From Nitrospirota bacterium (lineage in GTDB: Bacteria; Nitrospirota; RBG-16-64-22), in contig JACPZO010000015.1 in NCBI GenBank assembly GCA_016195465.1, positions 1 through 48,235 of the forward strand: DNA of 48,235 nucleotides, given 5' to 3'. Made by a program: the position numbers and the translations under genes. The notes below the pieces were generated by a model. It searched no databases, was not told where the DNA came from, and saw only the letters and a program-made list of their open reading frames with translations. This document shows positions 37,592-46,997 of this stretch, one piece after another. Positions within the stretch are counted from its first letter, which is position 1. Each line of letters starts with the position of its first letter.

Positions 37592-38665
37592 TTACGGCCT
37601 GCTTTGAACCTCGTACCCGCGTTCGACTTCCTTGTAGCTCTTCACGAGGACGGCCGTGGCGGTGCCGTCCTGGATGGAGATGACCTTGGCTTCGCTCACG
37701 AGCTGGTGTGGAAGCTGGATCCGGGCTTCCGACCAGCGGGCCTTCTTCACGAGGCCGGGGAGAATGACGGCGAACTTCGCGCCCACGCGGATTCCATCTT
37801 TTCTTCCGCGGTCGATGTAGACGATGTCGTGCTGGCCGTTCGAGTTCTTGTTGTCGGCCGTCTCGACGATGTGTCCCTTGACGGCCGGCGTCACTTCGCC
37901 GGCCACCATCTGGTCGGCGCCGGAAGGCTCGGCGAAGTCGGTGACCCGGTCCCCTTCCTCGATGGCGTCGTAGGAGCGGATGACGCGAGCCGTGGCGACC
38001 CGCCCGTCCGTCGCCGTCACCTCGGCGTAGCCAAGCGACTTGATCAGGTACCCCAGATTCCGTCCCGTGATCGGATGTTTCACCGCCCGGACGGTCCGGA
38101 CGATCGAGACCTTCGAGCCGGTCTGCGGATTGAAATTTGGCCCATGAGCGATGTAGATCGTGTCCTCCTGGCCGAGAAGGACCTTGTTGTCCCAGGAGCC
38201 GACGACCTCGCCTCCGGCCGGGACCGATCCGACGTAGCCGGCGGAGAGGATCAGCTTCTTCAAGGTGGGATCGACAGGCGCGGGCGGGACTGCCGGCCGC
38301 GCTTCTTCCGCTCCGGCCGCCGCCTCCTCCGGCTTTGCGGCCGCGACGGCTTCGGGGGCACCCTTCTCTTCGGCTTTGGCTTCCGCCTCCGTCTTTGAAG
38401 GCTTGGCGGGCGCTCCCGGAATCGCGATCTTCTGTCCCGGGTAGATCAGATCAGGGTTCTTGATGTCGGGATTCGCTTTCCAGACTTTCGGCCAGAGGAA
38501 GGGATCCTTGAGGTACGAGGACGTGATCCCCCAGAGAGTATCTCCCTTGACGACGTCGTGGCTCGCCGTCCCTTCCTTCTCGGCCATCGTCTGGTTGACG
38601 AAGAGAAAGACGGCGGCGCCAACGACCGCCGCCCCGATGCCGATCCATTTCGTGATCTTTGACAT
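37592..38665 (-). CDS. LysM peptidoglycan-binding domain protein (TsaP-like)
   Basis: HDVVKGDTLWGI..YLKDPFLWPKVWKANPDIKNPDLIYPGQ; conserved position upstream of dprA. Confidence 0.9.
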   Translation of the reverse strand: MSKITKWIGIGAAVVGAAVFLFVNQTMAEKEGTASHDVVKGDTLWGITSSYLKDPFLWPKVWKANPDIKNPDLIYPGQKIAIPGAPAKPSKTEAEAKAEEKGAPEAVAAAKPEEAAAGAEEARPAVPPAPVDPTLKKLILSAGYVGSVPAGGEVVGSWDNKVLLGQEDTIYIAHGPNFNPQTGSKVSIVRTVRAVKHPITGRNLGYLIKSLGYAEVTATDGRVATARVIRSYDAIEEGDRVTDFAEPSGADQMVAGEVTPAVKGHIVETADNKNSNGQHDIVYIDRGRKDGIRVGAKFAVILPGLVKKARWSEARIQLPHQLVSEAKVISIQDGTATAVLVKSYKEVERGYEVQSRP

Positions 38666-38845
38666 GTCGGACCTCCCCTGGCAGAGGCGTGGAACAAGGG
38701 ACTGGAAATTATTTTGAGCCTAGCGAATGAGCCGGATATTGTCAAGGATATTTCTAGATTCGATGGCGTAATGTGCTGTTTTTGAACGGTTCAGAACTTC
38801 TTTCGGGCCTTGGTCTGGGTTCAAGGTCAGGGGTCAGGCTGTGGT

Positions 38846-38895
38846 TGGAGAACCCCGCCTTGAAACGCGGGGATTTCGGCCCACTTTGCGGTTCA
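38846..38895. repeat. MITE/REP family A, short degenerate copy
   Basis: TGGAGAACCCCGCCTTGAAACGCGGGGATTTC...CACTTTGCGGTTCA. Confidence 0.7.
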
Positions 38896-38971
38896 TCTTG
38901 CTCGGCCATGGGGGGTGTGGTACGGTTTTTCTTCAGGGAGCACTGCCAATCAACGAAAGATGGGAGGAGGA

Positions 38972-39181
38972 ATGGATTTCCTGATCACGCTGGTTGTCGT
39001 CCTGCTTTTCGTCTACGCCGGTTCAGCCGTCTATCTGTACTACGGGTACAAGAACAACATGACCCTCTGAGGTATCGCGCATTCCCCGGAGGTCCTGGCG
39101 CGCATCGAAAAGAAGCTCAGGGCCGAGGGGAAAGACGTCCCCAGTTGGGTGACGGCAAGACAGAAGAAAGGCTCCTGCTGA
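38972..39181 (+). CDS. Candidate small membrane-anchored selenoprotein (69 aa, in-frame TGA at codon 33); alternatively a 32-aa peptide or pseudogene
   Basis: RBS GGAGGAGG; MDFLITLVVVLLFVYAGSAVYLYYGYKNNMTL-TGA-GIAHSPEVLARIEKKLRAEGKDVPSWVTARQKKGSC*; SECIS-like hairpin follows the TGA. Confidence 0.55.
39071..39103 (+). promoter_or_regulatory. Putative bacterial SECIS hairpin
   Basis: GCGC..CCGG[AGGUC]CUGG..GCGC with apical GG 20 nt after UGA, resembling the E. coli fdhF SECIS loop AGGUCU. Confidence 0.5.
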
Positions 39182-39224
39182 CGGCGCAAGGGGCAATGCG
39201 ACGCAGGGGCGTAATGCCACCGCA

Positions 39225-39815
39225 CTACCGCCAGGAGAGGATCTCGCTCACGGCCTTTCGCGGGGGCGCTAACGGCGTGTCCCGCGGAAAGCCGAGGACG
39301 AGCGAATCGACGACCCGGAACCCGTTCGGGACGTTCAGGCGTGAAATCAGGCGATGGTCCCGGTTGATGAGCGAGACGCCGCCGATGTGCGTCCCCCCGA
39401 GTCCCAGCGCCGTCGCGGCGATCAGGATGTTCTGAGCGGCGTAGGCGCAGGAGGCCTCGGCGTTCGGCCAGGAAGCGTCGGCGCAGACCAGGAGGAAGAG
39501 GGGGGCCCGGTGGATCGTCTGGCGAGGCGCTTTCTCGATGATCTCCCGGATTCTCTCCCCGCGGAGGGAAGGGAGAACGAGCTTGAGAAAGGGCCTCGCC
39601 TTCCAGATCCTCGCGGCCTGCCGGCGAAGCGCCGCCTCCACCTCATCGATCAGGAGCCTGTCTCGGACGGCGATGAAATGCCAGGGTTGCGAGTTGTACG
39701 GAGAAGGAGCGAGCGAGGCGAGGCGGACCAGGTCCTCGACCGTCTCGCGGGGGATTTCCCTTTCCTCGAAGCTCCTGCGGGCCCGTCTCTTTTCGATCGC
39801 CTCGATCGCGTCCAT
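39225..39815 (-). CDS. Nitroreductase family protein
   Basis: AIEKRRARRSF, LAPSPYNSQPWHF, QNILIAATALGLG. Confidence 0.9.
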   Translation of the reverse strand: MDAIEAIEKRRARRSFEEREIPRETVEDLVRLASLAPSPYNSQPWHFIAVRDRLLIDEVEAALRRQAARIWKARPFLKLVLPSLRGERIREIIEKAPRQTIHRAPLFLLVCADASWPNAEASCAYAAQNILIAATALGLGGTHIGGVSLINRDHRLISRLNVPNGFRVVDSLVLGFPRDTPLAPPRKAVSEILSWR

Positions 39816-46863: not shown

Positions 46864-46878
46864 CCGCTTTTCCCAGGT

Positions 46879-46997
46879 TGAAGAACCCCGCCTTGAAAGG
46901 CGGGGATTCTCCGACCTCTAAGGTACTTTTCGTTATTTGCATTCGTGCGCCTTGACCCCGCCCCAAGGGGCGGGGTCAAGGCGCACTTTGCGGTTCA
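46879..46997. mobile_element. MITE/REP family A, long copy
   Basis: TGAAGAACCCCGCCTTGAAAGGCGGGG...GTGCGCCTTGACCCCGCCCC-AA-GGGGCGGGGTCAAGGCGCAC...GCGGTTCA; terminal TCA is the stop of the adjacent gene. Confidence 0.85.

Follow-up and report, generated by a model that had tools for sequence, protein, structure and literature searches.

The window, a 48,235-nucleotide stretch of DNA from a Nitrospirota bacterium (contig JACPZO010000015.1 of assembly GCA_016195465.1, positions 1 to 48,235 of the forward strand), carries an ORF for a 69-residue single-helix membrane protein at 38972–39181 on the plus strand, as read from the window and its translation. Codon 33 of this ORF is an in-frame TGA. From the comparison of sequences we conclude that this is very probably a real, monocistronic gene encoding a genuine selenoprotein of an undescribed small-membrane-protein family, with recoding of the standard bacterial type; the probability of this reading is put at roughly 85%. 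Comparison with relatives shows the UGA to be conserved together with its two flanks as a single protein, far beyond chance.

General features of the gene and its locus

The features of the locus are as follows.

38962–38970, plus strand: Shine-Dalgarno-like sequence GGGAGGAGG, read directly, just 5' of the ATG at 38972
38972–39067, plus strand: codons 1–32, with the N-terminal transmembrane (TM) helix including Tyr15 and an aromatic/basic juxtamembrane stretch, ending in Leu32 (translation, alignment, AF2)
39068–39070, plus strand: in-frame TGA, proposed selenocysteine (Sec) codon, residue 33, in the motif L-U-G (conservation, Cys column)
39071–39178, plus strand: codons 34–69, tail predicted to be cytoplasmic, containing an amphipathic helix, the G-K-x-V-P-x-W motif and, at its C-terminus, Cys69 (alignment, entropy, AF2)
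39077–39103, plus strand: SECIS-like hairpin within the coding region, GCGC / CCGG [AGGUC] CUGG / GCGC (letters read; hairpins of relatives)
39179–39181, plus strand: stop codon TGA (conservation ends there; TAA or TAG in some relatives)
37592–38665, minus strand: LysM-domain gene, divergent neighbour (ORF list and annotation)
39225–39815, minus strand: nitroreductase-family gene, convergent neighbour, with an MltA gene next (ORF list and annotation)

An earlier note on this DNA had described a hidden ORF with a ribosome-binding site (RBS), one TM helix, a UGA at 39068–39070 and 36 further codons, and had remarked that the ORF track misses it. The letters and the translation agree with this description, and the standard ORF list (translation table 11) does end the frame at 39070. 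Between the helix and the UGA the window gene reads Y-Y-G-Y-K-N-N-M-T-L. The 36 sense codons between the internal TGA and the stop encode a tail that ends in G-S-C, with TGC (39176–39178) as the codon of Cys69. The gene stands alone in a 560-bp gap of the window.

Purine-rich GGAGG-type sites are also found 5' of the start in most high-GC relatives. Low-GC members and Cys forms (L043, L044, L046, L050, L055–L058) show a TATAAT-like box approximately 7–12 nt before the ATG, without a Shine-Dalgarno sequence, and these genes may be leaderless. At the locus itself, a scan for promoters and terminators gave no promoter-like site and nothing informative, and a search for inverted repeats upstream of the gene found none. 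Rfam models applied to 38600–39300 returned only a sub-threshold chance match (14.3 bits vs 44.5).

A GC-rich element with a CCCCGC...GCGGGG hairpin is located at 38843–38897, and a second copy in the window at 46876–46908. With a 559-bp query, 16 matches were obtained in G000, 21 in G001 and 12 in G002; G001 and G002 are the two further members of the genus, recorded as Nitrospirae bacterium RBG_16_64_22 and as a Nitrospiria MAG. Nearly all off-locus matches fall on the GC-rich element of approximately 30–55 bp, some copies of which are paired about 93 nt apart, and this repeat looks REP- or MITE-like. The region that separates the LysM gene from the small ORF downstream of it is about 700 bp longer in G001 (L003, approximately 1800–2480) than in G000 and G002, and the extra sequence is unrelated.

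Conservation of the in-frame TGA and of the Sec/Cys pair

A six-frame protein search of 401 Nitrospirota genomes was performed, and matches with E ≤ 1e-3 were kept. In each of the 30 best places in these genomes, the frame has a TGA at the same position of the alignment, and 29 of them contain exactly one TGA. The remaining copy (L042 in G178), with an extra TAA and a second TGA, looks decayed. L033 (G220) and L038 (G211) also look damaged; their conserved C-terminus is lost and the frames run on into long unrelated sequence. Start-codon choice left 29 ORFs. G220 and G211, with aberrant C-termini, and G056, which belongs to a sister mini-family, were left out of the alignment, which comprises 32 sequences (27 Sec forms and 5 Cys forms).

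The genomic Cys forms were retrieved from weaker, stop-free matches in the same search. Cys replaces the TGA in G297, G327, G252, G243 and G216, and the tail and the terminal Cys are the same. Tyr15, Sec/Cys33, Gly53, Pro57, Trp59 and Cys69 are invariant across the 32 sequences. Within the genus, whose genomes are not independent, G001 and G002 both keep the gene and the TGA. Their helices differ from that of the window gene by hydrophobic swaps and a one-codon in-frame indel, and they lose similarity to the window immediately behind the final TGA. Past the UGA, G000 and G002 differ at four sites, all of them synonymous third positions. The UGA is also unchanged in related-strain contigs from two other studies.

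A profile search against 1.84 billion representative proteins gave 14 matches. These include full-length Cys forms (P0004–P0008), C-terminal halves called as separate small ORFs, and members of the sister mini-family; where named by the source, they are annotated as 'hypothetical protein' of Nitrospirota MAGs. P0002, the only near-length match to the window protein in a database of 5.8 billion clusters, ends exactly at the TGA. A locus search with the window protein (P0001) recovered only the two same-genus MAGs and two Undibacterium matches; the latter lie antisense to a gene for a permease and were rejected as spurious. Outside the 401 Nitrospirota genomes sampled, the range of the family is judged from the protein-profile search and three single-protein scans, and the family has so far been seen only in Sec-using Nitrospirota.

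The earlier note had called for homologues with a kept TGA or a Cys at this site, and both kinds were found, with TGA in every one of the best places and Cys in five genomic relatives and in P0004–P0008. It had also held that Trp or Arg in homologues would point to a nonsense mutation. One such case was seen: the full-length database relative P0003 has W where others have Sec or Cys. The nearest genomic relative of P0003 (Ca. Sulfobium, L078) has TGA at that site, and the W may come from a gene caller reading TGA as Trp; the site is otherwise TGA or Cys.

Probable coding beyond the UGA, and the stop codon

Column entropies show the same pattern by codon position on both sides of the UGA. After the UGA, the mean values are 0.65/0.57/1.12 in 18 sequences of the S-P-E-V subgroup and 0.68/0.50/1.23 in 6 sequences of the G-G-V-x-P-S-V-R subgroup; before the UGA, the corresponding values are 0.76/0.71/1.38 and 0.55/0.37/1.11. 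In the related-strain contigs, the ORF shows only substitutions and one 3-nt deletion, and frame-breaking indels of 1, 2 and 4 nt occur only past 39181, from 39193 onwards. The in-frame periodicity, the conserved G53, P57, W59 and C69, and this indel pattern agree with the earlier claim that coding continues past the UGA.

These data bear on the reading of the UGA as an ordinary stop, by which the locus would encode a 32-residue membrane peptide followed by a separate conserved RNA or a re-initiated second small ORF. In line with it, gene calling with table 11 ends at 39070, and databases hold the N-terminal piece P0002 and the C-terminal pieces P0009, P0011 and P0016 as separate proteins; some termination at the UGA is, however, expected in any Sec gene. 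Against it, the Cys forms unite both halves in a single uninterrupted ORF, and no in-frame ATG, GTG or TTG is present between the UGA and codon 59 in G000. A two-gene arrangement was rejected on these two grounds. Moreover, the periodicity and the invariant residues persist in the same frame, and Rfam has no match there. An ordinary stop at codon 33 is thus very unlikely. A pseudogene reading was also rejected.

An antisense gene as the source of the conserved signal has a negligible probability. A 61-codon antisense ORF at 39040–39225 shares its wobble positions with the plus-strand frame, and this frame is open in G000 and, downstream of the UGA, in 25/29 members. However, it contains stops in the other 4/29, the region of its start is lost or altered in G002, and frame-breaking indels lie there in related strains. 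An antisense gene also leaves the TM helix and the RBS unexplained, as well as the Sec/Cys column and the invariant residues G, P, W and C.

The preferred reading, a single recoded gene on the plus strand, ends at 39179–39181. The stop codon is TGA in 21/29 members and TAA or TAG in 8/29, and between 0 and 13 residues separate it from the last Cys, depending on the member. Sense codons follow directly after the terminal TGA in the window, with no immediate second stop, and no conservation was detected behind the final stop in G001, G002 or the related strains. The earlier note had considered a second Sec at the terminal GSC-TGA. The TAA and TAG endings, the variable distance between Cys and stop, and the collapse of conservation and frame after 39181 speak against this suggestion, and by these comparisons the terminal TGA is an ordinary stop.

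Selenocysteine machinery

The selA, selB, selC and selD genes, which the earlier note had asked to be confirmed, are all represented in the genome of the window. The tRNA-Sec scores 78.2 bits (gathering score 47), selB 365.7 bits and selA 601.8 bits, and selB and selA are adjacent. The Sec-type selD (382.8 bits; contig C78:21854–22765, L073) has its own in-frame TGA, followed by a hairpin with a 7-bp stem and a GGUC-type apex 27–29 nt after the UGA. This selD gene itself encodes a selenoprotein.

The selA gene was identified in 193/401 Nitrospirota genomes (48%) and in all 32 genomes with a TGA form, namely the 27 aligned ones and G220, G211, G178, G056 and G244; since kin are not independent, this co-occurrence is a consistency check and not a statistic. 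The selA-negative families f10 (0/76), f17 (0/40) and f11 (0/28) gave no match with E < 0.001. Among the five Cys-form genomes, four have selA, and G243 is absent from the selA-positive set.

SECIS-like hairpin

The hairpin proposed for the window gene consists of GCGC (39077–39080), CCGG (39086–39089), AGGTC (39090–39094), CTGG (39095–39098) and GCGC (39100–39103). There are 20 nt between the TGA and the apical GG, and the GGU is located 21–23 nt after the UGA; the bSECISearch model uses a window of 16–37 nt for an apical loop with G/U. The letters, the 20-nt spacing and the AGGUC apex are as the earlier note had given them, but the structure is no more stable in the window than in shuffled sequences. 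The stem is interrupted (4+4 bp). The minimum free energy fold of 39060–39125 does not contain it (z +0.32; 116/200 shuffles fold as well), and folding of a 43-nt segment yields the outer stem alone (−9.4 kcal/mol, z +1.25; 183/200 shuffles as good).

Many relatives have a clean 7-bp hairpin, CGCCGG[AGGUC]CUGGCG, approximately 21 nt after the UGA, and in G253 and G335/G045 the stem is kept through two-sided changes. Over 21 aligned members, 75.7% of cells are paired, compared with 34–61% when the partner is slid. Two-sided changes occur in 3/7 pairs, and the covariation score was reached by 0/500 shuffles. RNAalifold gave no consensus structure for these 21 members, and in about five members (G190, G193, G250, G163 and G211) the corresponding stretch forms no hairpin with a GGU apex. 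In the UGGV-PSVR subgroup the hairpin is of another and weaker kind, the C-U-C [CGUGA] G-A-G type, with GU approximately 20 nt from the UGA. Three of the five Cys forms have no GGU at +15 to +30. In a crude scan of the whole genome, 530 of 60,543 TGAs were followed by a GGU-apex hairpin of ≥5 bp, and both this site and selD were missed; because of this low specificity and these misses, the hairpin evidence alone is given little weight. Given the hairpins and the covariation of the relatives on one side, and the lacking RNAalifold consensus, the members without the hairpin and the divergent subgroup on the other, a SECIS element in the window gene is regarded as plausible. In the window gene it is weak, and it becomes convincing only through the relatives.

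The weak or atypical SECIS of several members, together with the W in P0003, would fit a UGA that is decoded independently of selenium in a programmed leaky termination, with a near-cognate tRNA inserting, for example, Trp or Cys. We consider this highly improbable. All 32 genomes with a TGA form have selA, compared with about half of the sample; relatives substitute Cys, the usual partner of Sec; and TGA is the normal stop of the same gene in most members. The W itself may be a caller artefact, as the closest genomic relative of P0003 has TGA. Insertion of Sec thus remains the preferred reading of codon 33.

Protein features and predicted topology

The AF2 model built on the alignment has a mean pLDDT of 80.5. 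It contains a helix at residues 2–28 (pLDDT 92–95), a loop at 29–38 that holds residue 33, and further helices at 39–51 and, short, at 58–61. Foldseek against the PDB gave no match with E ≤ 0.001, and a search of the ESM Atlas with the natural Cys form P0004 gave no useful look-alike (scores ≤ 0.83). Across the 32 sequences, the charge of the N-terminal flank ranges from −1 to +2, and the tail of 40–57 residues has a net charge of +3 to +11 in every sequence. By the positive-inside rule, the tail would be cytoplasmic.

Genomic neighbourhoods and proposed function

Gene neighbourhoods differ between lineages. In 7/29 loci (genera g30 and g22), the next gene upstream is msrA, in the same orientation and approximately 20–115 nt away. 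In G371, from another family, an msrA-msrB fusion is divergent at approximately 64 nt, which brings the loci with an msr neighbour to 8/29, in 3 genera and 2 families. In G219 the gene stands in a row of a PNPOx-like gene, the small gene, DUF3795 and OsmC. In the genome of the window, the neighbours are the LysM and nitroreductase genes and not msr.

In the proposed mechanism, the downstream hairpin, approximately 10–35 nt past the UGA and with the AGGUC apex, would recruit SelB with Sec-tRNA(Sec), and the ribosome would then insert Sec at codon 33 rather than terminate. By prediction, the product crosses the membrane once, its very short N-terminus facing outwards and its basic tail of 40 residues lying in the cytoplasm. 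Sec33 would be placed two to five residues past the helix, at the membrane face, and would most likely form a selenenylsulfide or selenol-thiol redox couple with the invariant Cys69. This disulfide-type bond could be re-reduced by a thioredoxin-type system.

The role of the protein is probably in oxidative-damage defence at the membrane, as hinted by the frequent msrA or msrAB neighbours of the gene and, in one case, an OsmC neighbour. The neighbouring MsrA proteins have signal peptides and a G-C-F-W-C site. Since an MsrA with a signal peptide is probably exported, whereas the Sec tail is predicted to be cytoplasmic, the msr link is read as weakly suggesting co-regulation in oxidative-stress defence and not as a proven partnership. 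A bolder and rather doubtful proposal sees in this gene the first representative of a class of minimal bacterial selenol/thiol relays that are anchored in the membrane (helix, Sec and terminal Cys) and would serve methionine-sulfoxide repair or peroxide defence there; the MsrA/MsrAB pairing would then represent an undescribed reductant route for exported Msr in Nitrospirota. As a side possibility of this proposal, selenium supply would set the ratio of the 32-residue helix peptide to the full protein.

The main functional rival accepts the selenoprotein but lets the Sec/Cys site bind a metal or metalloid at the membrane, so that the protein would act as a sensor or chaperone of species such as Cu, Hg or chromate, instead of forming a redox couple. 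The sister mini-family, with a Cys-rich C-G-C-K-G-x-x-C tail after the same helix and P-L-C-G site, points in this direction. So do two gene contexts: in G293 the gene follows two chromate-transporter halves, and in G187 it is divergent from a TauE/SafE exporter gene. However, each of these contexts occurs only once, Msr and OsmC neighbours are commoner (8 + 1 of 29), and no metal-binding family was matched in Pfam or NCBIfam. Metal binding is therefore held to be unlikely, and the redox couple is the preferred function.

Comparison with known systems

The window protein matched no family in Pfam-A or NCBIfam r20 at E up to 10, and for the 32 members an E limit of 1 gave nothing but scattered chance matches in Pfam-A and NCBIfam. 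A table of 119 prokaryotic selenoprotein families in a 2026 review contains no single-helix L-U-G protein (PMC13188914), and those of its families that have NCBIfam models gave no match. None of the 119 catalogued families fits, which accords with the view of the earlier note that the protein resembles no known selenoprotein family. No description of the family was found in the main texts of the literature searched.

If the reading is correct, the family adds to the prokaryotic selenoproteome, and standard pipelines are blind to such genes because the gene has fewer than 70 codons, is split by the UGA and has only rare Cys homologues (the 14 profile matches above). Predictors that depend on Cys pairs and those that depend on SECIS models share this blind spot. 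Within the searches performed here, it would also be the first bacterial selenoprotein that consists of a single TM helix with Sec at the membrane surface. To our knowledge, a single-TM-helix selenoprotein architecture is otherwise known from the eukaryotic SELENOK and SELENOS. The family also offers a lead on membrane redox repair in uncultured groundwater and sediment Nitrospirota.

The Escherichia coli fdhF gene is the prototype of bacterial SelB/SECIS-dependent selenoprotein genes. Like such genes, including fdhF and the selD of this genome, the window gene has an in-frame UGA and a candidate hairpin in the coding region with a G/U apex approximately 20–30 nt downstream; it has Cys homologues, and its TGA form is found only where Sec machinery exists. 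It differs from the catalogued bacterial selenoproteins in that the protein is unrelated and the window hairpin is interrupted and weak.

KCU-star (DUF466, NF033934) and other small 'star' selenoproteins are named in NCBIfam, according to the review table (PMC13188914). Like KCU-star, the present protein is small, and many members end in Cys-TGA. Unlike KCU-star, it has no match to NF033934, its Sec is internal, and its terminal TGA is a stop with sense codons after it, replaced by TAA or TAG in some members.

The closest likeness in Nitrospirota is to the sister mini-family, which comprises membrane proteins of approximately 45–65 residues with the pattern Y-Y-Y-G-F-K-N-W-x-P-[LM]-C-G (L051–L054, L059–L066). 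Sec variants with TGA at the Cys site are present in L049 (G056) and L067 (G244). Both groups share the helix with Tyr, the juxtamembrane stretch and a Cys/Sec at the same place. In the sister mini-family, a short Cys-rich or unrelated tail replaces the tail helix, the G-K-x-V-P-x-W motif and the terminal Cys.

SELENOK and SELENOS are small eukaryotic proteins with a single N-terminal TM helix and a basic cytosolic tail that carries Sec, and SELENOS pairs its Sec with a nearby Cys. Pfam presumably holds models for both families, and none of the 32 members has a Pfam match, so the likeness is one of architecture only. In the present family, Sec is placed by the membrane and Cys at the C-terminus, the reverse of the arrangement in SELENOK and SELENOS, and the SECIS-like element is of the bacterial type, inside the ORF.
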